Part shown: piece after piece, positions 3,494 through 64,000 of the stretch | Layout: every line of letters starts with the position of its first letter | Numbering within the stretch: the first letter of the stretch is position 1 | DNA from: Candidatus Saccharimonadota bacterium | GTDB lineage: Bacteria > Patescibacteriota > Saccharimonadia > Saccharimonadales > JACOTW01 | Direction: 5' to 3' | Assembly: GCA_016178135.1 (NCBI GenBank) | Contig: JACOTW010000001.1 | Coordinates: 228-64,227 of the forward strand | DNA: 64,000 nucleotides | Made by a program: the position numbers and the translations under genes | The notes under the pieces: model-generated | What the model saw: only the letters and a program-made list of their open reading frames with translations | Told to the model about the DNA's origin: nothing | The model's database searches: none

Positions 3494-3651
3494 CTGGACT
3501 TGCGCAAAGCTCCCCCATCCCCAGACCAACTAATCTCGGCTGGCGGCGGTTTGCCTTCTATCGATGTAGCTAAAGCTACCTTTCCTTCAGTCAAACCACT
3601 CTCAGCTCGAGCTGATTTGCCCTGGGAACGGGTGATTTCGCCTAAGTCCAG
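3494..3651 (+). mobile_element. PE-A palindromic MITE-like element, full copy (gamma subtype)
   Basis: TIRs CTGGACTTGCGCAAA and a mismatched right TIR TTTCGCCTAAGTCCAG flank a near-palindromic core. Flanks are TTTA/TAAA. Confidence 0.85.
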
Positions 3652-3702
3652 TAAAGTACCAGAAAAAAGCGGGCCCACCCTAGTTACTGTGAGCAAAGAC
3701 AC

Positions 3703-4266
3703 ATGAACTCGCAACAAGTTGTTGATCAGGCTAAGGCGAAATTTACCCAAGCCCAGAGTCATTTTCTGGAAGAGTTGAAGAAGCTACGTACCGGACGCGC
3801 TCATCCAAGCATGCTTGATGGAGTAATGATAGAAGCCTACGGCACGGAAATGCCCCTAATCCAGGTGGGGACAGTTAGCACGCCGGAGCCACAGCTACTG
3901 CAAATTACGCCGTTTGATCCAAACAACCTGCAAGCTATATCGACGGCCATTCGCAATACTCAAAATTTGGGTATGAACCCAATGGACGATGGGCGGGTAG
4001 TCCGCGTACCCATTCCGCCGTTGAACGAAGAACGTAGGCATGATTTCGTCAAGCTACTCGGAACCAGAGTAGAGGATTGCATGGTTAGTTTGCGTAATAT
4101 TCGCCACGATGCAATTAGAGATATTGACCAGGCCAAAAAAGCTAAACTAATTGGCGAAGATGACGCTAAACGTCTGGAAAAACAAATCGATGATGCTATG
4201 AGTCAGGCCAAAAAAGAAGTTGAGGTGCAGGCCAAAACCAAAGAACAAGAAATCACGACCCTATAA
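3703..4266 (+). CDS. frr: Ribosome recycling factor
   Basis: 187 aa with full-length RRF-like sequence (LRTGRAHPSMLDGVMIEAYG, RVPIPPLNEERR). Confidence 0.95.
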   Translation: MNSQQVVDQAKAKFTQAQSHFLEELKKLRTGRAHPSMLDGVMIEAYGTEMPLIQVGTVSTPEPQLLQITPFDPNNLQAISTAIRNTQNLGMNPMDDGRVVRVPIPPLNEERRHDFVKLLGTRVEDCMVSLRNIRHDAIRDIDQAKKAKLIGEDDAKRLEKQIDDAMSQAKKEVEVQAKTKEQEITTL

Positions 4267-4596
4267 CCTACAAAGTTTTCCCATCCACTGATCCCGCGCC
4301 AATCTTACTAAATTCGACATATGTAGAATTTACTAAGATTGGCTGGAATTACGTGAAATCGTTTGGGGTAAGCTAGTTACAACCGTTGATAGTTGTGGTC
4401 ATTGATAAGTTGCCCGTTGATAAGTTGTAGCTGTTGATAGCTTTATTCTTCCCATCTGAACAGTCTACCTTCTATCTGAACAGTCTATCTTTCCGGTAGT
4501 GTTCGGGTTCGGATTAGAGTTCAGAGTTGCAGCCTGTTGTGTTACCGCAGTCTATTGCCTACGAAAAATTATAAAAGTCCTATATAATGAATGAAC

Positions 4597-5292
4597 ATGT
4601 CAGAGACTAACACCGTTCCGGTTCACCTCGGATTGATACTCGATGGTAATCGCCGCTGGGCAAAGGCCAATGGTCTGCCGGCTTTTGAAGGTCATCGTAG
4701 AGGCTATGAAAACCTAAAAACCATAGGCAAGACCGCCATTAAACGTGGTGTTAAGTATATTTCAGCCTATGTATTTTCTACAGAAAATTGGCAGCGTAGT
4801 AAGGAAGAAGTGGACTATCTCATGAAACTTCTTTTGTGGGTTGCCAAACACGAAGTTGCGGAGATGAATAAAGACGGCATACGCGTAAGGTTCATGGGTA
4901 GTCGGGATAGATTGAGTGCCAAGATTTTAAGAGCCATAGACGAAGCTGAAATTAAAACCAAAGATAACGTCAACGGCACTCTAGCCTTATGTTTGAATTA
5001 TGGTGGTCGGCAGGAGATAGTCGAAGCTTTTCAGAAAATGGCTGCTAACGATATCGCCACTAATGCTATAAACGAACAAACGATAGCCGATAATTTATAC
5101 CAACCAGACATTCCTCCAGTCGATCTGATTATCAGAACTTCTGGCGAACAGCGTATTAGTAATTTTATGTTATGGCGGGCGGCTTATAGCGAACTTTATT
5201 TTACTGATGTTCACTGGCCAGATTTTAATGAAGCAGAACTAGATAAGGCGCTTGAGGAATACGCTGCGCGCCACAGAAGGTATGGTAAGTAG
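4597..5292 (+). CDS. uppS: Undecaprenyl-diphosphate synthase
   Basis: HLGLILDGNRRWAKANGL and IRTSGEQRISNFMLWRAAYSELYF motifs. The ORF opens at 4591, but a TATAAT at 4583-4588 favours a leaderless ATG at 4597. Confidence 0.9.
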   Translation: MSETNTVPVHLGLILDGNRRWAKANGLPAFEGHRRGYENLKTIGKTAIKRGVKYISAYVFSTENWQRSKEEVDYLMKLLLWVAKHEVAEMNKDGIRVRFMGSRDRLSAKILRAIDEAEIKTKDNVNGTLALCLNYGGRQEIVEAFQKMAANDIATNAINEQTIADNLYQPDIPPVDLIIRTSGEQRISNFMLWRAAYSELYFTDVHWPDFNEAELDKALEEYAARHRRYGK

Positions 5293-6429
5293 ATGCACAT
5301 ATTACTATTGATTTTGGGCTTAATATTATTTATCAGCTTGGTTGTCGTGCATGAACTGGGGCATTTTATTGTGGCGCGACGCAATGGGGTAGAGGTAGAA
5401 GAATTTGGGATTTTCTTCCCCCCTCGTATCTGGAAAAAACGTATCAAAAGCAAAAAGGGCGATTATGACTTCACGATCAACGCACTACCTTTGGGCGGCT
5501 TTGTAAAACTAAAGGGTGAGCTTGATTCTGATACGTCGCCAGGTAGTTTTGGGGCAGCAAAACTATGGCCAAAGGTAAAAATCATGCTAGCTGGTGTAAC
5601 TATGAATTTACTCGCGGCTTTTGTGATTCTGACTTTTACGGCTTTAGTGGGTATTCCGAAACTTATTGATAAGCAGTTTACGGTAAATAGTGATACTCGA
5701 CTAACGAAGCATGCGATACTGATTGGTTATGTTGATCCGCATTCTCCAGCCCAGCAGGCCGGCTTACGTGTTCGTGATCAATTAATTAGTATAGGACTTT
5801 CGGGACAGAGCCAAAATACGATCAATACTCCGGAAAGCTTGCCAAAACTTACTAGGCTATACGCAGGTAAAGACGTAGAGGTTAGGTATCAGCGCAACGA
5901 TAAAATATCAAGTGCCATTTTGCGCCTACGTTCTACACAAGAAGTTGATAATAGTAAAAATACTAACGAACCCAAGGGTTATTTAGGGGTTTCGCCGACA
6001 GAATACGCCCTAAGGCGATCTACTTGGTCGGCGCCAATTGTTGCCGGCGGGCTGATCGAGCAGCTTACCGAATTGACATTTCAAGGTCTCGGCACGATTA
6101 TTGCTAATCTGTTTAGGGGTAATGTTCATGAAGCATCGCAGCAAGTTTCTGGCCCGGTCGGTATTTACGTTATTTTAAGAGACGGCAGTTTGCTTGGCTA
6201 TCAATTTATATTGATGATTATTGCTATAATTTCACTCACGCTTGCGATTATGAACGTTCTGCCGATTCCAGCGCTTGACGGTGGTAGATTGTTTGTAACA
6301 CTTGCTTTTAGAATATCTAAAAAACCTCTTAGTCAGCGTACCGAAGAACTAATTCATGGCACTGGCTTTGTCTTGCTGCTGGCTTTGTTCGCGCTTATTA
6401 CATTTGTAGATGTCGGGCGATTTTTTTAA
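5293..6429 (+). CDS. rseP: Site-2 (M50) zinc metalloprotease RseP family
   Basis: HELGHF zinc motif in the first TM helix, a central PDZ-like segment and a C-terminal LPIPALDGG motif. Confidence 0.9.
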   Translation: MHILLLILGLILFISLVVVHELGHFIVARRNGVEVEEFGIFFPPRIWKKRIKSKKGDYDFTINALPLGGFVKLKGELDSDTSPGSFGAAKLWPKVKIMLAGVTMNLLAAFVILTFTALVGIPKLIDKQFTVNSDTRLTKHAILIGYVDPHSPAQQAGLRVRDQLISIGLSGQSQNTINTPESLPKLTRLYAGKDVEVRYQRNDKISSAILRLRSTQEVDNSKNTNEPKGYLGVSPTEYALRRSTWSAPIVAGGLIEQLTELTFQGLGTIIANLFRGNVHEASQQVSGPVGIYVILRDGSLLGYQFILMIIAIISLTLAIMNVLPIPALDGGRLFVTLAFRISKKPLSQRTEELIHGTGFVLLLALFALITFVDVGRFF

Positions 6430-6433
6430 TTGT

Positions 6434-7237
6434 ATGAAAAAAACTTTGAGAAAATTATATCTGCGTAAGTCGAGTTTATCCGACTTACGCAAAACTATCT
6501 CATTCCCAGATCAATTCAATCCAGCGCTGGTCATTTTAGTTACTATTGGCGTTTATTTCGCTGCTCAAATTATCGGCGGTACATTAATTTCGATTTACCC
6601 AATTGTTCGAAGATGGGATAGGGTTCAAACTATGGATTGGCTAAGCAATTCATTGGTAGCGCAATTTTTTACAGTGGTTTTTATTTACGGATCAATATTG
6701 TTTTTGCTCCGTGTTTTTTTCAAAAAATACGGTGGTGGATTTCGGACTATAGGATTCAAGAAACCAAAATGGACGGATATGGGTTTTGCTTTGGCGGGCT
6801 ACGCCGCTTACATCGTGGCTTACATTGTTATTATAATATTAATTGGCCTGTTTATACCCGAGCTTAATCTTAACCAAAAACAGCAACTTGGGTTTTCTAC
6901 CGCCACAACTGGACCTGGCCTAATACTGATATTTATTAGTCTGGTAGTATTGCCGCCACTGGTTGAAGAATTATTAATGCGTGGTTTTTTGTACACCGGG
7001 CTAAGGGCTAGACTTCATAAAATGCCGTCGGCCATAATAACCAGTATTGTGTTTGCTGTTGGTCATCTACAGTGGGGCTCGGGTAACGCATTGCTCTGGA
7101 CTGCCGCAATAGACACTTTTATTTTGTCTATGGTGCTTGTTTATTTACGCGAACGAACCGGTGGCCTAGGGGCTTCGATTGGCTTACATATGATTAAAAA
7201 CTGCGTAGCGTTCGCGAGTTTGTTTATTTTGCGGTAG
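6434..7237 (+). CDS. CPBP family intramembrane glutamic endopeptidase (CAAX protease-like)
   Basis: Polytopic membrane protein with the EELLMRGF motif and later conserved H residues (FAVGH, IGLHMIKN). Confidence 0.8.
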   Translation: MKKTLRKLYLRKSSLSDLRKTISFPDQFNPALVILVTIGVYFAAQIIGGTLISIYPIVRRWDRVQTMDWLSNSLVAQFFTVVFIYGSILFLLRVFFKKYGGGFRTIGFKKPKWTDMGFALAGYAAYIVAYIVIIILIGLFIPELNLNQKQQLGFSTATTGPGLILIFISLVVLPPLVEELLMRGFLYTGLRARLHKMPSAIITSIVFAVGHLQWGSGNALLWTAAIDTFILSMVLVYLRERTGGLGASIGLHMIKNCVAFASLFILR

Positions 7238-8668: not shown

Positions 8669-8732
8669 TAACTGTTTTCGCACGACTTGAAGCAAGCAAG
8701 ATATCAATGGTAAAGTGCGAAATTCGTGTATA

Positions 8733-8932
8733 CTGGACCTGTCGCAAAATCGTCCGTTCCCAGAGTGAATTATCTCGCGCGAAAACTGTTTTGTCTGAAG
8801 GAGAGGTAGCCTTAGCTACATTGAGAGAAGAAAAACCGTTTGTCTTCGACTCTGAGGTGAGCCCTCAGGCTCAGACTCGAAGAGTAGCCGATAGAATTCG
8901 ATCTGGGGATGGAGGAGTTTGCGTAAATCCAG
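8733..8932 (-). mobile_element. PE-A element (beta subtype), reverse orientation, carrying a nested PE-S hairpin
   Basis: TIRs CTGGACCTGTCGCAAA/TTTGCGTAAATCCAG with a perfect 4-bp TSD (TATA/TATA). It is the only full copy in reverse orientation. Confidence 0.85.
8843..8883. repeat. PE-S 41-42-bp hairpin element nested in PE-A
   Basis: TCTTCGACTCTGAG...CTCAGACTCGAAGA. The same insert recurs at 33971-34012 and at about 63970 to the window end, at the same position within PE-A. Confidence 0.7.
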
Positions 8933-8990
8933 TATACTAAAACGCAGGTTTTGAGAGACTAAAAGTTCTAAACGGAGTTAATCATAGATT

Positions 8991-13035: not shown

Positions 13036-13366
13036 CTGGACCTGTCGCAAAGCTCCCCCATCCCCAGACCAATTCATCTCGATTGGTAGCGGTCTGTCTT
13101 CTCTCGATGTAGCAAAGAGCTAATTAACATCTATCTGTCGGCTAAAATCTTCAGGTCTGTCACTTTTATTCTGTTTTTTGTTTTCGGTTCGTACCGATAG
13201 GTACGACCAAAAGCCAAGAAAACAGAATAAAAATCATGACAGCTGCTAAAGATTCGCTATCAACAGATAGATATTAATTAGCTCTAAGGCTACCTCTCCT
13301 TCAGCCAAACCACTCCCAACTCGAGCTGATTTAGCCTGGGAACGGGCGATTTTGCGACAGGTCCAG
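13036..13366 (+). mobile_element. PE-A element (gamma subtype) with nested PE-E
   Basis: TIRs CTGGACCTGTCGCAAA/TTTGCGACAGGTCCAG with flanks TATA/TGTA. Confidence 0.85.
13116..13285 (+). mobile_element. PE-E palindromic element nested in PE-A
   Basis: TIR AGAGCTAATTAACATCTATCTGT / ACAGATAGATATTAATTAGCTCT with a central hairpin GGTTCGTACC-GAT-AGGTACGACC. A second, truncated copy lies at 34046-34182. Confidence 0.8.
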
Positions 13367-13530
13367 TGTAGATACCGAGAACTGAACCAATTCGTCAGAT
13401 AGTCGGATGGTGCTGGTTGTGAGTGCGGAATGGGGGCTATATGTGTATAAAGTGTGAAAGTCGTGTTAGAGATAAATAATTTAAAATAAAGTCGAGCTTT
13501 TTGGTTTGGCTGAGATCGGTATTATTTTCT

Positions 13531-14578: not shown

Positions 14579-14832
14579 CTAGACCAATCGCAAACTCTCT
14601 TTCGGACACGAGTTTCGCACTTTTCCATAGCCCCAGATGACACCTGACAAGCTACAGCCACTCACTCCTCACTCAACATAGGCTATAGCCCAAGCCTCCC
14701 TCGGATTGAACAACTGTAACCAGCCAGCTGCAACCTGGCATCAATGGCTAAGTGCGAAACTCGTGTCGGATAAAAACAGTTTTCGCTCGAACTGATTCGC
14801 CCTGGGAACGACGGATTTCGCGACAGGTCCAG
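14579..14832 (+). mobile_element. Internally deleted PE-A carrying a nested PE-B
   Basis: A degenerate left TIR CTAGACCAATCGCAAA joins directly to the right half ...CTGGGAACGACGGATTTCGCGACAGGTCCAG. It begins 4 nt after the stop of the Ddl-like gene. Confidence 0.75.
14606..14765 (+). mobile_element. PE-B element, full copy
   Basis: TIRs ACACGAGTTTCGCACTT/AAGTGCGAAACTCGTGT with a 3-bp TSD (CGG/CGG). Confidence 0.85.
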
Positions 14833-14876: not shown

Positions 14877-15521
14877 ATGCAAAAGGCGATGTTTGGGGCG
14901 GGGTGTTTTTGGGGAGTGCAGTATTATTTTGACCAAGTACCTGGGGTAAATAAAACTACCGTAGGCTATAGCGGCGGGCATACCAAAAATCCGTCTTATG
15001 AAGAAGTTTGTACGCATACTACTGGTCATGCGGAAGTGGTTGAAATTGAGTTTGACCCAAGTAAAGTCAGCTATGAAACACTTGTAAAACAATTTTTTCG
15101 GATGCACGACCCCACACAATTAAATAGGCAAGGTCCAGATGTAGGCGATAGCTATAGCCATCCCAAAACAAAATGACCATTTTTGTCTGCGCCTGATGAT
15201 CTAAAAACTACTTTTTTGTCTGCAGCATATCTACGGATATGCTTTAGCCAAAGAAAGCTAGTTTTTAGACTCATCATCCATCACTCAAAATTTGGTCATT
15301 TTGTTTTGGAATGGCTATATCGTTCGGCGATTTTTTATTTTGATGACGATCAAAAGCAAATTGCCGGAACAATTAAAGCGACCACGCAAAATAGTTCTGA
15401 AAAGCCCATCGTAACAGAAATAACTCAAGCTATGGAGTTTTACAAAGCTGAAGATTACCACCAAAAATACACCGAACGCACTGGTCGCGGCATGTGCCAC
15501 GTGCCATATAAAGAGGTATAG
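14877..15521 (+). pseudogene. msrA: Peptide methionine sulfoxide reductase MsrA interrupted by a PE-C insertion
   Basis: GCFWGV...[11 protein letters not shown] ends at 15155 and RSAIFYFDDDQKQ... resumes at 15321. The junction matches the conserved GxxYRSAIY. The 165-bp insert is in frame but contains a TGA at 15174-15176. Confidence 0.8.
15155..15317 (+). mobile_element. PE-C element, full copy, inside msrA
   Basis: TIRs TAGCCATCCCAAAACAAAATGACCA / TGGTCATTTTGTTTTGGAATGGCTA with a TA target-site duplication (15153-54 and 15318-19). Confidence 0.85.
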
Positions 15522-15537: not shown

Positions 15538-15559
15538 AAGTGCGAAACTCGTGTATACT
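15538..15559 (+). promoter_or_regulatory. Solo PE-B right end supplying a TATACT -10-like hexamer 7 nt upstream of an ATG
   Basis: The sequence reads AAGTGCGAAACTCGTGTATACT, then 7 nt, then the ATG at 15567. Confidence 0.5.
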
Positions 15560-18121: not shown

Positions 18122-18921
18122 ACTATAGGGTGGAGCGTAGCCAACCCTATAAACCTGGGCAAAAAACGTCATTTAAAGTGAGCCGATCAAAAATTGAGCT
18201 ATTCACGCAGTGTCAGCGTTGTTTCTGGTTAGATGCTCGGCTTAAGATTAAGCGTCCCAACGGACCGCCATTTCAAATCAATAAAGCCGTTGATGAATTG
18301 TTGAAAAAAGAATTTGACGGTTATCGTTTGAAAGGCAAGGCTCACCCTGTAATGATCGAATTTGGGGTTGCCGCTATTCCATTCGCTCATGCCAGTCTGG
18401 ATGTTTGGCGAACCAATTTTACGGGAGTGGCTACCCTGTATGAACCTGCGAATTTGCAGGTTTTTGGTGCTGTTGATGATATTTGGGTAAATAGCAACGA
18501 CGAACTCATAGTAGTAGACTACAAAGCCACTGCCAAACAAAGCGATGTTACTCTAGATGCCGATTGGCAGATGAGCTATAAGCGGCAGATGGAAGTTTAC
18601 CAGTGGCTATTACGTCAAAATGGCTTTAAGGTGAGCGATACTGGCTACTTTGTTTACGCTAATGGTCGGCTGGATGTTGATGGGTTTTATAACAAAATAG
18701 AGTTTAGAACAAAAATCATTCCATACACCGGAAATGATGCCTGGATAGAGCCAACCCTGGGGAATATGAAAGATTGTCTAGAGGCTGATATGCCACAAGT
18801 CGGTAAGGCTGCCATGGGTGGCGATTGCGATTTTTGTACCTACGCCAGAGCCCGCTCGGAGCTGACAATAGCGGCACTTAACTGGACTTACGCAAAGCTC
18901 CCCCATCCCCAGACCGACTAA
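18118..18921 (+). CDS. PD-(D/E)XK nuclease, Cas4/RecB-like with a 4-Cys cluster; C-terminus and stop derived from PE-A
   Basis: CQRCFW near the N-terminus, DYKATAKQ core, EVYQW, and C-terminal CDFCTY. The last 13 codons (NWTYAKLPHPQTD*) lie inside the PE-A copy starting at 18882. Confidence 0.65.
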   Translation: MNYRVERSQPYKPGQKTSFKVSRSKIELFTQCQRCFWLDARLKIKRPNGPPFQINKAVDELLKKEFDGYRLKGKAHPVMIEFGVAAIPFAHASLDVWRTNFTGVATLYEPANLQVFGAVDDIWVNSNDELIVVDYKATAKQSDVTLDADWQMSYKRQMEVYQWLLRQNGFKVSDTGYFVYANGRLDVDGFYNKIEFRTKIIPYTGNDAWIEPTLGNMKDCLEADMPQVGKAAMGGDCDFCTYARARSELTIAALNWTYAKLPHPQTD

Positions 18922-19040
18922 TCTCGGCTGCAAACAGTTTTTTCTCTCTCGATGTACCTCCCTGGTACCTCTCCTTCAGACAAAACTGTTTTCGCTCGAG
19001 CTGATTCGTCCTGGGAACGAGGGATTTTGCGTAAGTCCAG
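18882..19040 (+). mobile_element. PE-A element (alpha subtype), full copy
   Basis: TIRs CTGGACTTACGCAAA/TTTGCGTAAGTCCAG with flanks TTAA/TTTT. Confidence 0.85.
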
Positions 19041-19067
19041 TTTTAAGCAAGCCAAAAAGCCATCTTG

Positions 19068-19146
19068 ACACGAGTTTCGCACTTTTCCGTTGCCCCTTGC
19101 AGTTGTGATTTGGCATCAACGGCTAAGTGCAACACAAAAATCGTGT
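19068..19146 (+). mobile_element. PE-B short variant
   Basis: ACACGAGTTTCGCACTTTTCC...GGCTAAGTGCAACACAAAAATCGTGT. Confidence 0.65.
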
Positions 19147-19192
19147 TATCCGTTGTCTACGAAAAAGTTCGAAATTCCTATATACTGTTCTT

Positions 19193-20878: not shown

Positions 20879-21038
20879 CTGGACCTGTCGCAAAGCTCCC
20901 TCATCCCCAGACCGACTAACCTCGGTTACAAACAGTTTTTCCTCTCTCGATGTACCTCCTGGGTACCCCTCCTTCAGACAAAACTGTTTTCGTTCGAGCT
21001 GATTCGCCCTGGGAACGAAGGATTTTGCGTAAGTCCAG
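20879..21038 (+). mobile_element. PE-A element (alpha subtype), full copy
   Basis: TIRs CTGGACCTGTCGCAAA/TTTGCGTAAGTCCAG with a perfect 4-bp TSD (TTAA/TTAA). Confidence 0.9.
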
Positions 21039-21100
21039 TTAAAGCATATCCGTAGATATACTGCAGACAAAAATGGTCATTTTGTTTTGGGATGACCATA
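21039..21100 (-). repeat. PE-C left half, reverse orientation, abutting PE-A
   Basis: AAAGCATATCCGTAGATATACTGCAGACAAAAATGGTCATTTTGTTTTGGGATGACCA. The break is at the GCTTTA site, which also hosts PE-D at 37591. Confidence 0.7.
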
Positions 21101-25072: not shown

Positions 25073-25087
25073 AAAGTCCTATATAAT
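25073..25087 (+). promoter_or_regulatory. AAAGTCCTATATAAT promoter-like motif 8 nt upstream of the prfB ATG
   Basis: The same motif recurs at 2263-2283, 4574-4588, 26183-26196 and 36414-36436, and forms the PE-D right terminus at 37733-37750. Confidence 0.55.
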
Positions 25088-25095
25088 AAGTTTGT

Positions 25096-26195: not shown

Positions 26196-26345
26196 ACACA
26201 AATTTCGCACTTTTCCATCGCCCCAGATGACACCTGACAGGCTACAGCGGCTCACTCCTCACTTAATGGCCCAAGACTCCCTCGGATTGAACAACTGTAA
26301 TCAGCCAGCTGCCACCTGGCATCCGGCTAAGTGCGAAACTCGTGT
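26196..26345 (+). mobile_element. PE-B element, full copy, with its right tip forming the ftsE -10 box
   Basis: TIRs ACACAAATTTCGCACTT/AAGTGCGAAACTCGTGT with a 3-bp TSD (ATA/ATA). The junction creates CGTGTATAAT 8 nt upstream of the ftsE ATG. Confidence 0.85.
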
Positions 26346-28008: not shown

Positions 28009-28096
28009 CTGGAATCACGCAAAGTTCCTCCGCCCCCAGACCAAATAATCTCGGCTGGTAGCGGTCTGTCTTATCTCGATTTTGCGACAGGTCTAG
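28009..28096 (+). mobile_element. PE-A miniature (internally deleted) copy
   Basis: The left arm CTGGAATCACGCAAAGTTCCTCCGCCCCCAGACC... joins directly to the right TIR TTTTGCGACAGGTCTAG. Confidence 0.7.
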
Positions 28097-30559: not shown

Positions 30560-31741
30560 GTGCGACACTTTCTGCAAAGTGAGGCGTGGCAGCGATTTCA
30601 GCAAGCGCTTGGCAAAGAAGTAATTAGCCAGCGCGGACATGGCTGGTCGTTTATGGGTGTTATTGAGCAGCCTCGGAAACGTGGTGGTCGCTTGAATCGG
30701 CGGCTGTATTTGCCTTATGGGCCAACTTGTCAAGATGAAATTGCTCTTGGGGAGGCTCTCCAGGCAATCAGAAAAATAGCAAACCAAAAAAAAGTAGTAT
30801 ATGTTCGCCTGGAGCCTATTATTCTTTCCGGTCAAACAATTGATCTGAAAAAGTACGGCTGTCAACCAAATAAGCACCCCACGCAACCAGATAGAACTTG
30901 GGTACTGAATCTTGCAAAGGACGAGGAAAATCTGTTGGCAAATATGAGTGGGACCAACCGGAACCTTTGGAATACTCATAAAAATAAAGGACTGTCATTC
31001 CAGATTGATTACGATAAAACGGACTTAAAAGACTTTTTAGCGATGCTACACGCGATGGCTGGGCGTAAAGGTCTAAAAACACACGACGACAGTTATTTTA
31101 AGACGATGGCCAGAAGTTTATTTCCCGAAAAAGATGCCGGATTAGCTATTGCTTTGTTGCATGACAAACCAATTGTGGCGGCAATTTTCTTTGATGATCC
31201 AGTGGCTGGGATTAGATATTATGCCCATGCTGGGTCATTTGAAGAGGCTCGGAAAATCCAGGCCAACTCTCCACTTTTGACTTTTTTGATACTAGACGCC
31301 AAAAAACGCGGCTTCAAGGAGTTTGACTTCTATGGCGTCTCTCCGCCTGGTGACGAGTTACACCGCTGGGCTGGACATAGCAAGTTTAAACGCTCATTTG
31401 GTGGTGTAGACAAAGAATACCTAGGAACCTGGGAGTTACCGGTGAGACGCGATTTATTTATCTTGGCCCAAGTTGCTCGCAAATTCAGTAAACTGGACTT
31501 ACGCAAAGCTCCCTCATCCCCAGACCGACTAACCTCGGCTGCAAACAGCTTTTCCTCTCTCGATGTACCTCCTGGTACCTCTCCTTCAGACAAAACTGTT
31601 TTCGCTCGAGCTGATTCGTCCTGGGAACGAGGGATTTTGCGTAAGTCCAGTAAACCTCTTGCCAAAGCTTCAGGGAGTAAGGTAGTATTTAAAGGAATAA
31701 TAAAAAGAGGTGATACAAGAGGTGGCAAAGCAACCGACTAA
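30560..31741 (+). CDS. FemAB-family peptidoglycan bridge aminoacyltransferase with a C-terminus read through a complete PE-A copy
   Basis: N-terminus MRHFLQSEAWQRFQQALG and the FemAB pattern. From about codon 312 the ORF reads through all 158 bp of PE-A (LDLRKAPSSPDRL...ILRKSS) and on to 31741, overlapping pyrG. Confidence 0.7.
   Translation: MRHFLQSEAWQRFQQALGKEVISQRGHGWSFMGVIEQPRKRGGRLNRRLYLPYGPTCQDEIALGEALQAIRKIANQKKVVYVRLEPIILSGQTIDLKKYGCQPNKHPTQPDRTWVLNLAKDEENLLANMSGTNRNLWNTHKNKGLSFQIDYDKTDLKDFLAMLHAMAGRKGLKTHDDSYFKTMARSLFPEKDAGLAIALLHDKPIVAAIFFDDPVAGIRYYAHAGSFEEARKIQANSPLLTFLILDAKKRGFKEFDFYGVSPPGDELHRWAGHSKFKRSFGGVDKEYLGTWELPVRRDLFILAQVARKFSKLDLRKAPSSPDRLTSAANSFSSLDVPPGTSPSDKTVFARADSSWERGILRKSSKPLAKASGSKVVFKGIIKRGDTRGGKATD
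31493..31650 (+). mobile_element. PE-A element (alpha subtype), full copy, inside the femAB-like ORF
   Basis: Perfect TIRs CTGGACTTACGCAAA/TTTGCGTAAGTCCAG with a perfect 4-bp TSD (TAAA/TAAA). Confidence 0.9.
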
Positions 31742-33819: not shown

Positions 33820-34182
33820 CTGGACATGTCGCAAAAGCCCCCATCTCCAGACCGACTAACCTTGGTTACAAACGGCTTTTCTTCTCTCGATGTATTCTTT
33901 AAGCTCTCCTTCGGATAAACTGGACCTGTCGCAAAACTCCTCCATCCCCAGATCGAATTCTATCGGCTACTCTTCGAGTCTGAGCCTGAGGGCTCACCTC
34001 AGAGTCGAAGACAAACGGTTTTTCTTCTCTCAATGTAGCCAAGAACTAATTAACATCTATCTGTCGGCTAAAATCTTTAGGTCTGTCACTTTTATTCTGT
34101 TTTTTGTTTTCGGTTCGTACCGATAGGTACGACCAAAAGCCAAGAAAACAGAATAAAAATCATGACAGCTGCTAAAGATTCG
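33820..34182 (+). mobile_element. Stack of truncated elements: PE-A left part, a second PE-A left part with PE-S, and a truncated PE-E
   Basis: PE-A #1 (33820-33919) is cut by PE-A #2 (from 33920). PE-A #2 contains PE-S (33971-34012) and then PE-E (34046-34182), which ends abruptly. No right halves are present. Confidence 0.75.
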
Positions 34183-36100: not shown

Positions 36101-36260
36101 CTGGACTTACGCAAAGCTCCCTCATCCCCAGACCGACTAACCTCGGCTACAAACAGTTTTTCCTCTCTCGATGTACCTCCTGGGTACTTCTCCTTCAGAC
36201 AAAACTGTTTTCGCTCGAGCTGATTCGCCCTGGGAACGAGGGATTTTGCGACAGGTCCAG
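36101..36260 (+). mobile_element. PE-A element (alpha subtype), full copy
   Basis: Perfect 4-bp TSD (TATA/TATA). On the minus strand its tip reads GTCCAGTATACT, then 7 nt, then the methyltransferase ATG. Confidence 0.9.
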
Positions 36261-36268
36261 TATAGCTA

Positions 36269-36312
36269 TAGCCATCCCAGAACAAAATGCCCATTGTGTT
36301 TTAGCATAGCTA
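36269..36312 (+). mobile_element. PE-C miniature copy (44 bp)
   Basis: TAGCCATCCCAGAACAAAATG...CATTGTGTTTTAGCATAGCTA with a TA/TA duplication. Confidence 0.6.
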
Positions 36313-36445
36313 TAGCCAGAGTTTTCTCATCCACTCATCCCGCGCCACTCTTACATAATTTTTCACCACCCCAGACCAATCCTGTAAAGCAGGATTACTC
36401 TGGAATTGGTGAAAAAGTACGAAAGTCCTATATAATAAATGTTTA

Positions 36446-37544: not shown

Positions 37545-37822
37545 CCTAAAAACTACTTTTTTGTCTGCAGCATATCTACGGATATGCTTTATAGGACTTT
37601 CGCACTTTGTTGCCAATGCCAGAGTGTAGCTGGGTGAGCGAAAACGGTTCAGGTTCTGGAGGGGTAGCCATAGCTACACCGAGAGAACATGGGCCGCTTG
37701 TAGCCACACAGGTTAAGTCTGGTGTGGTAAGAAAGTGCGAAAGTCCTATATAGCCAAAGAAAGCTAGTTTTTAGACTCATCATCCATCACTCAAAATTTG
37801 GTCATTTTGTTTTGGAATGGCT
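37545..37822 (+). mobile_element. PE-C (left TIR missing) carrying a nested full PE-D
   Basis: Colinear with the msrA copy on both sides of the insert. The right TIR TGGTCATTTTGTTTTGGAATGGCT is intact. Confidence 0.8.
37591..37750 (+). mobile_element. PE-D element, full copy
   Basis: TIRs ATAGGACTTTCGCACTTT/AAAGTGCGAAAGTCCTATA, inserted at the GCTT-TA-GCC site of PE-C with TA flanks. It shares the TTTCGCACTTT core with the PE-B TIR. Confidence 0.8.
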
Positions 37823-37851
37823 CTAGGAACGAGGGATTTCGCATAAGTCCA
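37823..37851 (+). repeat. Solo PE-A right-end fragment
   Basis: CTAGGAACGAGGGATTTCGCATAAGTCCAG. Confidence 0.7.
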
Positions 37852-37872: not shown

Positions 37873-38976
37873 ATGCAGGAGTTAGTTTTTTCGCCGAGTG
37901 ATTTTGTTGCTGTTTTGAATCAGACGCTGGAATCTGCCTATCCCGGCGTTATGATTCAGGGGGAGTTGGCTAATTTTCGTGTGAGTAAAAATAAATGGGT
38001 GTATTTTGATCTCAAGGACGAATATTCTTCAGTTAAATTCTTTGGAACGATCTATCAATTAACGGGGCCACTGGAAGATGGACTTATGCTACAAGTCAGG
38101 GGAATACCACGGCTACATCAAGCCTATGGTTTTAGTATTAATGTGCAATCTATACGACCAGTAGGTGAGGGATCGTTACGCAAGGCTGCGGCGTTGCTGG
38201 AGGCTAAACTGACTGCGGAGGGCTTGTTTGAGTCTTATCGTAAGCGAGCGCTACCATATCCGCCGGAGTGCATCGGGCTTATTGCGTCCAGTGAGTCTGC
38301 TGCTTATCATGATTTTATCAAGATTTTAAATAGTCGGTGGGGTGGGGTGATGATAGAGCTTGCCGACGTACAGGTTCAAGGTGATGCTGCTATTGGGCAA
38401 ATTGTTCGGGCTATAGATTACTTTAATCAACATGCCAAAATGCCCGAAATTTTAGTAATAACCAGAGGTGGTGGCAGTACTGAAGATCTGGCAGTTTTTA
38501 GTACCGAACAAGTTACGCGAGCTATAGCCGGCAGTCGTGTTCCGACCATGGTTGCCATCGGCCATGAAGTAGATTTGAGTCTGGCTGAACTAGTGGCTGA
38601 TCGGCGCGCCAGTACACCCAGCAACGCTGCCGAACTACTTGTACCAGATAAAAAACATGAACGCCAGAGGGTTATTACGCAACAAAGAAGTCTAGATGAT
38701 TATCTATCCTACCTTATGAAAAATGCTCGCGAAGCCGTGAAAAATTATCAAAAAGAACTACAAGTTGGCTGGAAAGAATATATTACTAATGCAAAACGTA
38801 CACTTAGCTTGCATCGTCAGGTACTTGCGGTTTTAGACCCTGACACCGTGCTCAAGCGCGGTTATGCGATTGTTCGTAGTAGTAATGGTGTCGTACTACG
38901 CTCAATTAAGCAAGTAGAAGCCGGTGATACACTTAATGTAGTGATTAGCGATGGTAGTTTTGAAGCTAGAGTATGA
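37873..38976 (+). CDS. xseA: Exodeoxyribonuclease VII large subunit
   Basis: An OB-fold N-terminus (GELANFRVSKNKWVYFDLKD) and a catalytic core (ITRGGGSTEDL, IGHEVD). Confidence 0.9.
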   Translation: MQELVFSPSDFVAVLNQTLESAYPGVMIQGELANFRVSKNKWVYFDLKDEYSSVKFFGTIYQLTGPLEDGLMLQVRGIPRLHQAYGFSINVQSIRPVGEGSLRKAAALLEAKLTAEGLFESYRKRALPYPPECIGLIASSESAAYHDFIKILNSRWGGVMIELADVQVQGDAAIGQIVRAIDYFNQHAKMPEILVITRGGGSTEDLAVFSTEQVTRAIAGSRVPTMVAIGHEVDLSLAELVADRRASTPSNAAELLVPDKKHERQRVITQQRSLDDYLSYLMKNAREAVKNYQKELQVGWKEYITNAKRTLSLHRQVLAVLDPDTVLKRGYAIVRSSNGVVLRSIKQVEAGDTLNVVISDGSFEARV

Positions 38977-39051
38977 CACGAGTTTAGCACTTTTCCATTG
39001 CCCCTTGGTCACACCTGAACGGCTGCAAACTTCTACTCCTCACTCAACATA
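38976..39051 (+). repeat. PE-B left portion (right portion missing)
   Basis: ACACGAGTTTAGCACTTTTCCATTGCCCC...CTCACTCAACATA is colinear with PE-B up to the TA where PE-G sits. Confidence 0.7.
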
Positions 39052-39214
39052 TAGCCCCCGCAAAACAAATTCCCGACTTTTCGAATCACCCTCTTTGGCC
39101 CAAAACCGCCTTTCCTCGTTCAACGTATCTAAGGATATGTCTCTCTCGGAAAAATCAGTTTTTGACTCAAAGATCATTGCTTCAAAAACCCACGAATTTG
39201 TTTTGCGGGGACTA
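39052..39214 (+). mobile_element. PE-G element, full copy
   Basis: TIRs TAGCCCCCGCAAAACAAATTC/GAATTTGTTTTGCGGGGACTA with TA/TA duplication. The TIR is related to PE-C (TAGCC..CAAAACAAA). A fragment recurs at about 46840-46866. Confidence 0.75.
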
Positions 39215-44635: not shown

Positions 44636-44794
44636 CTCGACCTACCCAAAACTCCTCCATCCCCAGATCGAATTCTATCGGCTACAAACAGTTTTTCTTC
44701 TCTCGATGTAGCTAAGGCTACCTCTCCTTCAGACAAAACAGTTTTCGCTCGAGATAATTCACTCTGGGAACGGACGATTTTGCGACAGGTCCAG
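44636..44794 (+). mobile_element. PE-A element (beta subtype) with a degenerate left TIR, abutting the typA stop codon
   Basis: CTCGACCTACCCAAAA...TTTTGCGACAGGTCCAG. The right flank TTTA contains the complement of the typA TAA stop. Confidence 0.8.
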
Positions 44795-46685: not shown

Positions 46686-46903
46686 GTCAAATATCCTCAA
46701 ACAGTTTCACGAATATGGGGGCTATAGCTGTGGCTACATCGAGGACAGAAAAACTGTTTGCAGCCCCGCATATGCGGGATGAACTGGGGTGATGAAAAAG
46801 TCCGAAACTCGTGTTAAAGATCATCGGCTCCAAAACCCCCGAATTTGTTTTGCGGTGGCTATAATTCACTCTGGGAACGGGCGATTTTGCGATAGGTCCA
46901 GTA
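46686..46903. repeat. Mosaic of element fragments (reverse PE-A part, a PE-B/D-like end, a PE-G end, a forward PE-A right end)
   Basis: GCTACATCGAGGACAGAAAAACTGTTTGCAGCC...; AAAAAGTCCGAAACTCGTGT; CCCCCGAATTTGTTTTGCGG; CACTCTGGGAACGGGCGATTTTGCGATAGGTCCAG. Confidence 0.6.
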
Positions 46904-46958: not shown

Positions 46959-47153
46959 CTGGACTTACGCAAAGCTCCTCCATCCCCAGATCGAATTCTA
47001 TCGGCTACAAACAGTTTTTCTTCTCTCAATGTAGCTACTGCTACCTCGCCTTCAGATAAAACAGTTTTCGCTCGAAATAATTCACTCTGGGAACGGACGA
47101 TTTTGCGTAAGTCCAGTTTAGCCTGGGGACGGGCGATTTTGCGACAGGTCCAG
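46959..47153 (+). mobile_element. PE-A (beta subtype) full copy plus the trailing right-end piece of a host PE-A
   Basis: The full copy spans 46959-47116 with TSD TTTA/TTTA. It is followed by GCCTGGGGACGGGCGATTTTGCGACAGGTCCAG. The arrangement is paralogous to 62101-62295. Confidence 0.85.
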
Positions 47154-47179
47154 TTTAGTATGTTTACGGGCGGTTTAAG

Positions 47180-61670: not shown

Positions 61671-61691
61671 ATCGCCTAAGTATACACTCTA

Positions 61692-61736
61692 CTGGACTTA
61701 CGCAAAATCACTCGTTTCCAGACCGAATCAGCTTCA
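61692..61736 (-). repeat. PE-A fragment (reverse orientation, truncated)
   Basis: CTGGACTTACGCAAAATCACTCGTTTCCAGACCGAATCAGCTTC. Confidence 0.65.
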
Positions 61737-61738
61737 GT

Positions 61739-61909: not shown

Positions 61910-61973
61910 AACCATAAGTATACTGGACCTATAGTAAAATCCCTTGAGAGTATACAACACAGTTCGAACTAGA

Positions 61974-62295
61974 CTGGACCTGTCGCAAAGCTCCCCCATC
62001 CCCAGACCAATTCATCTTGGCTGGTAGCGGTCTGTCTTCTGTCGATGTAGCTATGGCTACCTCTCCTTCAGCCAAACCACTCCCAACTCGAGCTGATTAA
62101 CTGGACTTACCCAAAACTCCTCCATCCCCAGATCGAATTCTATCGGCTACAAACGGTTTTTCTTCTCTCAATGTAGCTATGGCTACCTCTCCTTCAGACA
62201 AAACAGTTTTCGCTCGAGATAATTCACTCTGGGAACGGACGATTTTGGGTAAGTCCAGTTTAGCCTGGGAACGGGCGATTTTGCGACAGGTCCAG
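61974..62295 (+). mobile_element. PE-A (gamma subtype) host copy interrupted by a second PE-A
   Basis: The left part ends ...ACTCGAGCTGATTAA and the right part resumes TTTAGCCTGGGAACGGGCGATTTTGCGACAGGTCCAG. It is colinear with the uninterrupted copy at 13036-13366. Confidence 0.85.
62101..62258 (+). mobile_element. PE-A (beta subtype) nested inside PE-A
   Basis: TIRs CTGGACTTACCCAAAA/TTTTGGGTAAGTCCAG (a compensated G/C change in both TIRs) with flanks TTAA/TTTA. Confidence 0.85.
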
Positions 62296-62473
62296 TATAA
62301 AGACCTCTTGTTTGCGACGTCAGGTGCCAACCAGAGCATGTCGTACAGCGATAAACGCGGATCGGTTTTTTTAATCTTCTCAAGGGGTTAATTTTTTTTA
62401 GAGTTGCTTGAGCGGCCACATCGCTAGTGAAGCGTACTTTCTGTTTGCAGACATTTCTAGAGTTATTATTCAT
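62183..62473 (-). CDS. Small CxxC (zinc-ribbon-like) protein whose C-terminal ~37 codons and stop come from PE-A
   Basis: The native part is MNNNSRNVCKQKVRFTSDVAAQATLKKINPLRRLKKPIRVYRCTTCSGWHLTSQ. The ORF enters PE-A at 62295 and runs on to 62183. Confidence 0.4.
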   Translation of the reverse strand: MNNNSRNVCKQKVRFTSDVAAQATLKKINPLRRLKKPIRVYRCTTCSGWHLTSQTRGLYTGPVAKSPVPRLNWTYPKSSVPRVNYLERKLFCLKER

Positions 62474-62475
62474 AA

Positions 62476-63351
62476 TTAGCGTAATTGCCAGTGACCGGCC
62501 CCAAGTGGCATAATTTTGCCAGTTATTTCTAGCATGGTTAGTGTTTGATTGAAAATGACGATGTTTAAAGCACTCAAAGCAAGAATTTCGTTACTATCGG
62601 TGATCCCCTGCTTCATGAGATCCAAAATAACCGATTCTTCTTTATTGGCGGCAAATAATTCGGTAGATAGAGGTGATATATCGATATCTAGAGCGTGCAT
62701 AATATCACGAAATTCAGTTACTGGAATGGCTCCAGACTTGATTAGATTATTGGTGCCAGCACTAAGTGGACTGGTGATATTACCTGGTACAGCCATTACC
62801 GACTTCCCTTGTTCAAGTGCAAAGTTTGCGGTGTGCAGGGTGCCACTTTTGACCGCGGCTTCAGTTATGAGTACGCCATCAGATAGTCCGGATACTAATC
62901 GATTCCTTGTGATGAATGAAAATCTTAATGGCGGTGATCCAGCTGAATGTTCGCTGATCAATACTCCCCCACTTTTTAATATACGCTTAGCAAGCTGAAC
63001 GTGGTTCTTAGGGTAAATTTCCGTAACGTGAGATGGCAGAACCGCAATGGTTATGCCATCTGCGTCCAGGGTAGCTTGGTGAGCAAGTGCGTCAACGCCA
63101 AAAGCCAGCCCACTGATAACTACTACTCCCCTACTCGCCACTTCATATACCAACTGGTTGGTGATTTGTTTACCGTACGGTGATACTTTGCGACTGCCAA
63201 CAACGGCTAGCCGTGGCATTTTCAGCAACGGAGCTAAGTCGCCCAGAACATACAGCTCTGATGGCGGACTGGGAATTGTTCGCAATATTTCAGGGAAATT
63301 ACTCTGGTTGTATCTAATTTTTTTGACTATCATGCTAAAAAGTATTGACAT
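62476..63351 (-). CDS. dprA: DNA processing protein DprA
   Basis: A Rossmann-like DprA core (VVGSRKVSPYG, ISGLAFGVDA, TEAAVKSGTLHTA). The start may instead be 63333. Confidence 0.9.
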   Translation of the reverse strand: MSILFSMIVKKIRYNQSNFPEILRTIPSPPSELYVLGDLAPLLKMPRLAVVGSRKVSPYGKQITNQLVYEVASRGVVVISGLAFGVDALAHQATLDADGITIAVLPSHVTEIYPKNHVQLAKRILKSGGVLISEHSAGSPPLRFSFITRNRLVSGLSDGVLITEAAVKSGTLHTANFALEQGKSVMAVPGNITSPLSAGTNNLIKSGAIPVTEFRDIMHALDIDISPLSTELFAANKEESVILDLMKQGITDSNEILALSALNIVIFNQTLTMLEITGKIMPLGAGHWQLR

Positions 63352-63421
63352 TTATAATAATTTTGCTAAAATGGCAATTTGTAAGTTCCGCATAAGCGGA
63401 TTTACGTACCTTACACCCTAT

Positions 63422-63439
63422 TCTAACAAATTTGTTAGA
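63422..63439. promoter_or_regulatory. Perfect 18-bp palindrome TCTAACAAATTTGTTAGA upstream of dprA
   Basis: Read directly from the sequence. Operator-like dyad about 70-90 bp upstream of the dprA start. Confidence 0.35.
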
Positions 63440-63562
63440 TTGTTTTAGAGCTAGAACCTATCTTATGGACTATATTAAAATGATCTGTCAGATAGGTTCT
63501 GTGGATAAAGTTGTTACCCTCCACTTTTTCTTTTTCGCCATAAGGCGGAGGCTCTAAAACAA
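63440..63562. repeat. 123-bp nested inverted-repeat unit (outer 12-bp IR, inner 11-bp IR) containing a perfect DnaA box
   Basis: The outer IR is TTGTTTTAGAGC...GCTCTAAAACAA and the inner IR is AGAACCTATCT...AGATAGGTTCT. TGTGGATAA lies at 63500-63508. Confidence 0.5.
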
Positions 63563-63594
63563 ACTAATCCCTTTAACTAATTCTCTTGTCTATT

Positions 63595-63643
63595 TCATGA
63601 GTTTCGCACTTTTCCATCAACGGCTAAATGTGAAACTCATGTA
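63595..63643 (+). mobile_element. PE-B miniature copy
   Basis: TCATGAGTTTCGCACTTTTCCATCAACGGCTAAATGTGAAACTCATGTA. Confidence 0.6.
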
Positions 63644-63831
63644 TTTTTAGATAAGAGTCCCGAATCAAGGCGAGTTTCCACGATTCCACCTGTCAATTGA
63701 CAAGTGGAGGCACATGTCTTTATGGAGTTTTGGACTATGATGCTTCGCCCCGGGTGGGTTGAAGGGTGTTTCTCTGGCGCGTCCATTTTTTTACGAAATT
63801 CGTAGCAAAAATGGAGGTGCCAAAAAATCGG

Positions 63832-63870
63832 CCTACAGCGGTGCCCACCCCCTCTGTAGGTCGTTTTTTT
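63832..63870 (+). terminator. Rho-independent terminator (usable in both directions)
   Basis: (CGG)CCTACAG-15 nt loop-CTGTAGG(TCG) followed by T7. An A6 run on the 5' side gives a U-run on the opposite strand. Confidence 0.65.
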
Positions 63871-63872
63871 GT

Positions 63873-63923
63873 ACACGCATTTCGCACTTTTCCATCGCCC
63901 CAGATGACACCTGACAGGCTCTA
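63873..63923 (+). repeat. PE-B left portion interrupted by PE-A
   Basis: ACACGCATTTCGCACTTTTCCATCGCCCCAGATGACACCTGACAGGCT. Confidence 0.7.
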
Positions 63924-64000
63924 CTGGACCTGTCGCAAAACTCCTCTATCCCCAGATCGAATTCTATCGGCTACTCTTCGAGTCTGAGCCTGAGGGCTCA
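63924..64000 (+). mobile_element. PE-A (beta subtype) with PE-S, running off the window end
   Basis: CTGGACCTGTCGCAAAACTCCTCTATCCCCAGATCGAATTCTATCGGCTAC followed by TCTTCGAGTCTGAGCCTGAGGGCTCA. Confidence 0.8.

Follow-up and report, generated by a model that had tools for sequence, protein, structure and literature searches.

Palindromic Elements of the Window

In this study, we analyzed a stretch of 64,000 nucleotides (the window) from a Candidatus Saccharimonadota bacterium (assembly GCA_016178135.1, contig JACOTW010000001.1, positions 228 to 64,227 of the forward strand). From the letters alone it had been taken for a genome resembling the Candidate Phyla Radiation (CPR), and the NCBI protein names, Candidatus Saccharibacteria, agree. 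The window has a G+C content of 41-48% and carries housekeeping genes (frr, uppS, proS, lysS, serS, secA, the dcw cluster, topA, and dprA), together with about 36 palindromic repeat copies and fragments in units of approximately 150-170 bp. We consider it very probable that these repeats are mobile MITEs (miniature transposable elements with inverted repeats) of one superfamily, in which a homologous hairpin-forming core is combined with at least three kinds of tips. The survey was based on this one 64-kb window and on fragments of relatives.

Self-alignment of the window gave 25 intervals bearing repeats, and repeat finding gave 17 families. The elements total 4.3 kb, which is 6.8% of the window and 45% of its intergenic bases by the public gene calls. 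An element was found in 19 of the 29 intergenic gaps of at least 40 bp, as expected from the sequence-only reading, in which most gaps held one; its description of a genome "saturated" with elements applies to the 64-kb window. Most copies are intergenic, many of them just 3' of genes, and the dcw cluster (47.2-61.6 kb) contains none. A search of the window for tRNA genes gave no match. Every family has inverted ends of 16-25 bp. In the window, the PE-A end CTGGACYTRYCGCAAA was matched 20 times, against 0.18 expected from shuffles, and the PE-A right arm CTGGGAACGNNNGATTTTGCG 10 times against 0. The corresponding numbers were 16 against 0.18 for the PE-B end, 6 against 0 for the PE-C end, and 11 against 0.20 for the PE-D end. 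Thirteen PE-A copies have both ends (at 3494, 8733, 13036, 14579, 18882, 20879, 28009, 31493, 36101, 44636, 46959, 61974, and 62101), the number claimed previously, and there are about 8 PE-A fragments rather than about 10. The elements are listed below by position and strand.

2174..2198, plus: solo PE-C right end, one mismatch to the PE-C end motif
2263..2280, plus: solo PE-D end adjoining -10-like TAAAGT; OmdA ATG 11 nt past the element end
3494..3651, plus: PE-A, 158 bp, flanks TTTA/TAAA
4576..4590, plus: decayed PE-D end (AAAGTCCTA) fused to TATAAT, uppS ATG 14 nt on
6460..6510, no strand: PE-A end mini-palindrome and left-arm fragment, codons 9-26 of the annotated Rce1-like gene
8713..8729, plus: solo PE-B end, neighbor of PE-A
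8733..8932, minus: PE-A, 200 bp, duplication TATA; 42-bp internal palindrome "PE-S" at 8844-8885
13036..13366, plus: PE-A (A3 subtype) hosting PE-E, flanks TATA/TGTA
13117..13284, no strand: PE-E, 168 bp, ends GAGCTAATTAACATCTATCTG, within the central TAA of PE-A
13450..13466, plus: solo PE-B-like end upstream of ddl
14579..14832, plus: PE-A with internal deletion, hosting PE-B
14606..14766, plus: PE-B, 161 bp, 3-bp duplication CGG (CAG/CGG in the sister strain)
15155..15317, plus: PE-C, 163 bp, TA duplication, within msrA
15538..15554, plus: solo PE-B end fused to TATACT, heliorhodopsin ATG 13 nt on
18882..19042, plus: PE-A, 161 bp, duplication TTAA, 3' end of the PDDEXK gene
19068..19145, plus: PE-B internal-deletion derivative, 78 bp
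19164..19181, plus: solo PE-D-like end fused to TATACT, serS ATG 12 nt on
20879..21038, plus: PE-A, 160 bp, duplication TTAA, in both strains
21044..21100, minus: PE-C deletion derivative
25075..25089, plus: decayed PE-D end fused to TATAAT, release-factor ATG 14 nt on
26196..26345, plus: PE-B, 150 bp, duplication ATA, beside a decayed PE-D end; right end fused to TATAAT, ftsE ATG 14 nt on
28009..28096, plus: PE-A internal-deletion derivative, 88 bp
31493..31650, plus: PE-A, 158 bp, duplication TAAA, near the 3' end of the FemAB-like ORF
33820..34182, plus: rearranged nest of a PE-A left part, a second PE-A left half with internal palindrome, and PE-E; shorter than in both public assemblies
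36101..36260, plus: PE-A, 160 bp, duplication TATA; left end and duplication form TATACT, minus-strand methyltransferase ATG 13 nt on
36269..36316, no strand: mini PE-C, 48 bp
36414..36431, plus: solo PE-D end fused to TATAAT, LPG-synthase ATG 15 nt on
37546..37823, plus: 5'-truncated PE-C hosting PE-D
37592..37748, no strand: PE-D, 157 bp, flanks TTTA/TATA
38976..39051, plus: PE-B-like element, left half up to the PE-G that interrupts it; right half only in both public assemblies
39052..39214, plus: PE-G, 163 bp, ends TAGCCCCCGCAAAACAAATTC, TA duplication
44636..44794, plus: PE-A (A2 subtype), 159 bp, flanks TAGA/TTTA
46798..46901, plus: fragment cluster of a solo PE-B end (46798-46814), a PE-G right-end fragment (46816-46864), and a PE-A right-end fragment (46865-46901)
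46959..47153, plus: PE-A A2 (46959-47116, duplication TTTA), then the right end of a host PE-A
61692..61733, plus: solo PE-A left end; on the minus strand just upstream of TATACT, topA ATG 14 nt on
61974..62295, plus: PE-A A3 hosting PE-A A2 (62101-62258), inserted at the host TTTA
63595..63642, no strand: mini PE-B, 48 bp, two ends only
63873..64000, plus: PE-B left part, then PE-A with internal palindrome leaving the window; complete version at L082 17238-17485

Filled and Empty Sites in Related Strains

We compared the window with the metagenome-assembled genome (MAG) GCA_016196105.1 (JACPYE010000014.1 from position 244, joined to JACPYE010000010.1) and with a sister strain, GCA_040960765.1, whose 654-kb contig JBFOMR010000010.1 (JBFOMR) differs from the window by 0.48% (about 236 substitutions across 49.6 kb). 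The strain-to-strain comparison covers the window apart from 1-6261 and 56696-64000. Metagenome, MAG, and Logan contigs labelled L023, L076-L079, L082, L117, L133, L142, L145, L172, and L195-L197 were also used. Seven element-associated structural differences separate the sister strain from the window. Four of them are clean insertion/empty pairs, and at their empty sites the duplicated bases are present once. Empty sites in a sister genome had been proposed as the check on the MITE interpretation, which these pairs support.

The PE-A copy at 18882-19042 is absent from JBFOMR and L076, where a single TTAA is found. At the empty site the sequence runs ...GGCACTTAAGCAAGCC..., and at the filled one ...CACTTAA|CTGGAC...GTCCAGTT|TTAAGC.... 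The insertion swapped the last 7 codons of the PDDEXK gene for 13 element-encoded codons. The PE-C copy at 15155-15317 splits msrA into ORFs of 99 aa and 112 aa. In JBFOMR, L076, and L077 the site is free of PE-C and encodes an intact 159-aa MsrA (GAT AGC TAT CGT TCG) with a single TA (empty site AGC-TA-TCG), and the insertion is common to L078 and L079. PE-E at 13117-13284 is missing from an otherwise identical PE-A in JBFOMR, and JBFOMR has an extra 163-bp PE-G at a TA beside the PE-D end at window position ~37750-37752 (empty site CCTATA-TA-GCC). The duplications checked at empty sites were thus TTAA for PE-A 18882, TA for PE-C 15155, and TA for the PE-G in JBFOMR. Nesting also provides internal empty sites, as in the host GA-TTTA-GCC that is split by the PE-A at 62101.

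The junctions of the elements recur in the short-read MAG GCA_016196105.1, in the 654-kb contig of GCA_040960765.1, and in Logan contigs of at least 6 runs, and homologous elements appear in unrelated studies. This bears on the possibility that the repeats were collapsed or chimeric in the MAG. In its favor, related MAGs have short-read contigs that break at PE-A copies, and the window departs from both public assemblies at two places, each within repeats. About 146 bp are missing at 34170-34182 (the remainder of PE-E and the PE-A right arm) and 107 bp at 39216/39217 (the right half of the PE-B-like element with the xseB ATG and first 4 codons). Both gaps are bounded by short imperfect direct repeats and may be a real deletion variant or an assembly collapse. 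Against it stand the repeated junctions and the exact reading frames restored at empty sites, and we see hardly any chance that the elements as a whole are an artefact. Since filled and empty sites occur in pairs and the same junctions recur, assembly chimeras, which the sequence-only reading had named as a possible refutation, and non-mobile RNA genes were excluded. These results demonstrate that the elements are recently mobile MITEs. Three other MAG species of Saccharibacteria carry PE-A, and so do 37 metagenome loci, in which PE-C and PE-D occur as well.

The strains also differ at 46959, where each has a different PE-A subtype, that of JBFOMR being an A3-type PE-A. An A2 element that entered an A3 copy at its TTTA (an arrangement intact at 61974-62295), with later recombination of one left end with the other, explains the difference. 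Such a replacement is also what gene conversion gives, and we considered whether the repeats could be relics that are spread and lost only by homologous recombination, gene conversion, or a non-DDE route (derived from IS200/IS605 or resembling repetitive extragenic palindromic sequences (REP) with their associated transposase RAYT) instead of by cut-and-paste. The numerous solo ends and deletion derivatives, the recurrence of identical nestings at separate loci (two cases each of E in A and of A2 in A3), and the failure to find a transposase in the Saccharibacteria sequence examined would all fit this. However, insertions into unique DNA (msrA and the 3' end of the PDDEXK gene) carry 2-bp and 4-bp duplications, which conversion cannot yield. 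REP/RAYT and IS200/IS605 derivatives have neither inverted terminal repeats nor duplications, and the size (about 160 bp) and the inverted ends (16-25 bp) fit DDE-type MITEs. A purely recombinational origin is therefore highly unlikely.

Target-Site Duplications

The flanks of PE-A were analyzed in 85 distinct copies taken from the window, three other Saccharibacteria MAG species, and 96 metagenome loci. The modal length of these copies is 158 bp. Identical 4-mers lie on both sides in 29 of the 85 copies, compared to 8.6 expected (maximum 17 in 2000 permutations). Matches at lengths of 3, 5, and 6 numbered 0-3. Among the non-palindromic 4-mer flanks, 13 matched directly and 5 in inverted orientation. 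TATA is preferred over TTTA, followed by TAAA and TTAA. A TA or 5-bp duplication was ruled out for PE-A by these statistics (29 matches at 4 bp, 3 at 5 bp).

In the window, the five perfect 4-bp duplications reported earlier for PE-A were all recovered (TATA at 8733 and 36101, TTAA at 20879, TAAA at 31493, TTTA at 46959), as were the 3-bp duplications of PE-B (CGG at 14606, ATA at 26196). A TA duplication had been assigned to PE-C, PE-D, and PE-G. This was right for PE-C, which has TA/TA flanks in 4 copies, and for PE-G. PE-D has 4-bp TWWA duplications in 7 of 8 copies (TATA/TATA in 6, TAAA/TAAA in 1). TA duplication is typical of IS630/mariner-type enzymes.

Common Core and Different Tips

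Each family folds end to end as a single hairpin, with z-scores of -3 to -15. Global alignments showed whole-length similarity between PE-A and PE-D (z about 10), PE-B and PE-D (8.5), PE-C and PE-G (9.3), and A2 and PE-G (8.5). The aligned families have the core ...CTCTCGATGTAGCTAnGGCTACCTCTCCTTCAG... in common, and PE-E was unrelated to the others. Because PE-A, PE-B, PE-D, PE-C, and PE-G have a homologous core, they belong to one superfamily, in which the outermost 7-9 bases differ and with them the length of the duplication. PE-A and PE-D end in C/T-x-GGACTTnCGCA, the type of the IS701 family, and have 4-bp TWWA duplications, mostly TATA. PE-C and PE-G end in TAGCC..CAAAACAAA with TA duplications, and PE-B has 3-bp duplications. 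Of the seven families of the sequence-only reading, PE-A, PE-B, PE-C, PE-D, PE-E, and PE-G stand as families. Their independence does not, given the homologous core, and neither does PE-S as an element that inserts into PE-A. This 42-bp palindrome occurs only within PE-A and always at one fixed position, so it is a subfamily feature.

The hairpins raise the question of whether the repeats are structured RNA genes or cis-regulatory hairpins, such as terminators or processing sites, that are selected and immobile. Besides the strong folding over the whole length and the largely intergenic position, often just after genes, PE-A shows compensatory changes. Of the 35 consensus pairs in an alignment of 34 PE-A copies of varied origin, 9 were retained via double changes, which represent few independent events, as many of the sequences are close relatives. 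The central stem is GTAGC/GCTAC, GTATC/GATAC, or GTACC/GGTAC depending on the subfamily, and one position in it is U-A in 19 copies, G-C in 7, and C-G in 7. This does not account for near-identical strains that differ in the presence of copies with duplicated target bases, for the interruption of msrA by one copy, for nesting and the occurrence of both orientations, or for ends identical to those of insertion sequences. With gathering thresholds, Rfam matched nothing anywhere in the window, and with permissive thresholds in two ORF-free stretches it gave nothing meaningful. Immobile RNA structures are an extremely improbable explanation, and an RNA hairpin may have a secondary role beside mobility.

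The nestings that had been read from the letters were found: PE-B in PE-A (14606 within 14579-14832), one PE-A in another (62101 within 61974-62295), PE-D in PE-C (37592), PE-G in a PE-B-like element (39052), and PE-E in PE-A (13117). Nesting followed by recombination among copies would produce the composites, deletion derivatives, and solo ends. In L023 (JAYTXD010000038.1, 4103-5173), a VapBC-like PIN toxin/antitoxin pair lies between inverted PE-A ends (a 73-bp mini PE-A and a solo end) and is possibly a MITE-bounded cargo. A glutaredoxin gene between PE-A-like ends in L145 was rejected as a composite element, the ends being degenerate and no duplication being present.

Elements in Genes and Promoters

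The PE-A at 31493-31650 and its TAAA duplication add up to 162 nt, or 54 codons, and are read through in frame in a FemAB-like ORF. The 393-aa ORF is matched by its orthologues (305-330 aa) over only its first 79%, and the element therefore lies beyond the conserved domain. In the Rce1-like/CPBP protease gene (6434-7237), the annotated N-terminus (…LRKSSLSDLRKTISFPD…) is encoded by a PE-A end mini-palindrome and a left-arm fragment. The protein may begin within the element, or its true start may be downstream. ORFs called within elements are short, repeat-derived hypotheticals. Annotated hypothetical proteins of 45-91 aa lie wholly or mostly within elements at 3470-3706, 8707-8940, 36171-36446, 44624-44803, 46941-47183, and 62097-62339, and they are very likely spurious ORFs made by stop-free palindromes.

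We found that -10-like hexamers (TAnnnT) peak at -14 to -12 of the annotated starts, where 19 of 58 genes have one compared to about 4.5 expected. Fourteen of these 19 match TATAAT in at least 5 of 6 positions, and most genes with a hexamer at this distance have no Shine-Dalgarno motif. It thus seems that leaderless transcripts are frequent and that this Saccharibacteria genome uses them as a major mode of expression. The hexamer is fused to an element end in 9 genes (OmdA, uppS, heliorhodopsin, serS, RF, ftsE, methyltransferase, LPG synthase, and hyp56), in the forms ...AAAGTCCTA|TATAAT, ...CTCGTGT|ATAAT, and ...GTCCAG|TATACT. Those of heliorhodopsin, serS, methyltransferase, and hyp56 fall inside the peak. 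An element end lies at most 7 nt from the hexamer in two further genes and in xseB of the public assemblies. In all, element ends adjoin the -10 box in about half of the leaderless-type promoters of the window.

Outside the window, 8 of 10 matches to the AGTCCTATA-type end are ends of full PE-D copies and two are isolated. Promoter-proximal ends are, on the sequence, lineage-specific element remnants. AAGTGCGAAAsTCsTrT or AGTCCTATA as a general promoter or operator motif of Saccharibacteria was rejected, both being absent from 146 kb of other Saccharibacteria loci.

Two explanations of the fused ends were compared. Ends of PE-B, PE-D, and PE-A could have been domesticated as promoter modules, with the element supplying the promoter. 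The fusion to TATAAT or TATACT 11-15 nt before 9-12 starts without Shine-Dalgarno motifs agrees with this, gene-proximal solo ends are kept where the rest of the element has decayed, and promoters are carried by Correia and other MITEs (PMC10969869). On the other hand, the reconstructed pre-insertion site at 36101 already reads TATACT (the TATA duplication and CT), element-free genes have the same hexamer at an equal distance, and the preference for TATA targets suffices to predict the pattern. Promoter donation is a possibility that we hold to be doubtful. The preferred reading is that elements would have landed in existing -10 boxes. Their preference for TATA/ATA targets would lead to insertion at leaderless genes, into -10 boxes that the duplication would rebuild, so that the insertion is tolerated and the element end is left fused to TATAAT or TATACT.

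Transposase and IS701-Family Ends

No transposase domain was found by Pfam in any called gene of the window, in agreement with the sequence-only reading. A scan of metagenomes with the PE-A end gave 96 loci, mostly with pairs of ends 140-160 bp apart. In L133, positions 417-1494 hold an insertion sequence of 1078 bp that has CTGGACTTACGCAA[AG]G as its boundaries and encodes a 343-aa transposase of the IS701 family (NCBIfam NF049921, transpos_IS701_2, E 4e-108). Its relatives in L195, L196, and L197, which were retrieved via protein and not DNA, have the same ends. The PE-A ends (CTGGACTTACGCAAA) match IS701-family insertion sequence ends, from non-CPR contigs, at 15 of 15 bases. In the IS701 family, duplications are "exactly four bps" and the end consensus is ---YACT-Y--YR (PMC2266710), with which PE-A and PE-D agree in ACT (5-7) and YR (12-13). 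By these ends, PE-A and PE-D are best filed as putative IS701-type derivatives, in place of the IS5-like enzyme that had been guessed for PE-A. The notion of a few trans-acting enzymes fits, since PE-A and PE-D share IS701-type ends and 4-bp duplications, and PE-C and PE-G share TAGCC...CAAAACAAA ends and TA. A scan of viral contigs with the PE-A end gave 14 single chance matches with no further homology. A transposase search of viral contigs gave none with a single protein and one insertion sequence (L197) with a profile.

A resident or visiting putative IS701-type enzyme making 4-bp staggered cuts would move PE-A and PE-D. Several observations speak against this view of the elements and their movement. 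Perfect duplications occur in only 34% of PE-A copies, and the polymorphic PE-A at 18882 has two extra bases (TT) at its right end. Some nestings at one site, namely E in A and A2 in A3, may come from composite spread or gene conversion instead of separate insertions. By tblastn, the Saccharibacteria sequence examined (the window, the loci of the sister strain, and 146 kb from other MAGs) yielded no transposase, and 0.7 Mb of PE-A-bearing metagenome loci yielded only that of L133. L133 has genes for succinate dehydrogenase and is probably not CPR, and close relatives of its transposase also occur in non-CPR contexts with sulfatases, PAS/GAF kinases, and a G+C content of up to 0.61. The similarity between PE-A and this insertion sequence is confined to the ends and does not extend to the interior. 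The two insertion sequences with readable flanks have 5-bp duplications (ATTAT and CGAGT) compared to 4 bp for PE-A. Insertion sequences ending in C[TA]GGACTTACGCAA and their 100-137-bp derivatives (L195, L197, L172, L196, L142, and L117), on GC-rich or AT-rich non-CPR contigs, have 5-6-bp duplications and no TWWA preference. For PE-B, PE-C, PE-D, PE-E, and PE-G, no long-spaced end pairs that could be autonomous partners were seen in about 1 Mb of loci. As for the promoters, a scan for the sigma-70 -35/-10 consensus gave no enrichment and did not pick out the promoters at element ends, which were recognized from position and a -10-like hexamer only. Since the insertion sequences duplicate 5 bp and PE-A duplicates 4 bp, the acting enzyme is at best a relative of the one found, and we infer that the enzyme acting in Saccharibacteria is related to the L133-type transposase.

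A more far-reaching scenario would unite these points. A hairpin core of approximately 70-100 nt would have repeatedly acquired new tips and been moved by at least three transposase specificities (4-bp TWWA, 3-bp, and TA). The elements would home to the -10 boxes of leaderless genes, rebuilt by the duplication, and would be active in an episymbiont without a cognate transposase via an enzyme from outside, supplied by the host cell or a transient element. As a whole, this scenario is speculative and rather unlikely.

Other Features of the Window

A 44-bp repeat (…TTTTCCCATCCACTGATCCCGCGCC…) at 4271-4314 and 36317-36360 stands outside all named families. Positions 107-1768 hold a GDSL/SGNH-like ORF of 553 aa, in which Ala, Gly, Thr, and Ser are abundant. 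The first 4 kb of the window have a higher G+C content (0.48 compared to about 0.42), and with this ORF they are possibly acquired DNA. A Pup-ligase-family gene (10972-12339) and a heliorhodopsin gene (15567-16454) are also encoded. The stretch at 63650-63872 is ORF-poor and G+C-rich, ends in a terminator-like hairpin followed by seven T, and has no credible Rfam match; it may be an unannotated small RNA.

Comparison with Known Systems

CPR and Saccharibacteria genomes are usually portrayed as streamlined, with little mobile DNA. In the window, MITEs account for nearly half of the intergenic sequence and disrupt or remodel msrA, a PDDEXK nuclease, and a FemAB-like enzyme, and element-linked structural differences between strains number about 1 per 34 point substitutions. 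Points of some interest are the density of the elements for a genome of about 1 Mb, the ongoing activity, the shared core with different tips, the association with promoters, and the missing transposase, which raises the question of the mobilizer in an obligate episymbiont. The association with leaderless promoters is a testable case of expression-sparing target choice or promoter donation. In practice, the elements break short-read assemblies, create false "hypothetical protein" calls, and can serve as high-resolution strain markers. Our literature search found no publication describing MITEs in Saccharibacteria or CPR. They are a known kind of element in a host in which it was not previously described, with the defining features of bacterial MITEs apart from a cognate autonomous element in the same genome, none having been found in the Saccharibacteria sequence examined.

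IS701-family insertion sequences resemble PE-A in the identity of the ends, the 4-bp duplication, and the ACT/YR end consensus (PMC2266710). They differ in that PE-A has no transposase gene, and the readable insertion sequence copies are in non-CPR genomes, with 5-bp duplications and no TWWA preference. The QMITEs of Coxiella burnetii and the cyanobacterial MITEs (Nezha, Anabaena) are also multi-family MITE populations that affect ORFs, promoters, and small RNAs (PMC5896051, PMC10969869). Their hosts and sequences are others, whereas here a shared core has differing tips and the elements take up 45% of the intergenic DNA in a genome of about 1 Mb. REP and bacterial interspersed mosaic elements (BIME) with RAYT, a tyrosine transposase, are palindromes of 20-40 bp. 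The present units, by contrast, measure about 160 bp and have inverted ends and duplications, and no RAYT-like gene is among the called genes.

The Correia elements of Neisseria (NEMIS) are alike in size (about 100-160 bp), inverted ends, high copy number, and mostly intergenic position. Their genome has no transposase, and none was found in the Saccharibacteria sequence examined here. They also have a TA target duplication, as in PE-C and PE-G, and sigma-70-type -10 boxes at ends beside genes (PMC10969869). The likeness drawn here is one of features, and the present families differ in having 2-, 3-, and 4-bp duplications, extensive nesting, and a CPR episymbiont as host. Rickettsia palindromic elements (RPEs) likewise comprise multiple families of whole-length palindromes of about 150 bp in a reduced genome, with no known transposase and some in-frame read-through (PMC10969869). 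In the window, one read-through, one C-terminal replacement, and one disruption were found among the approximately 36 copies and fragments, and the read-through is outside the conserved domain. Unlike most RPEs, the present elements show current mobility by their duplications and strain polymorphism. Taken together, they work like Correia elements and RPEs but stand outside both families.

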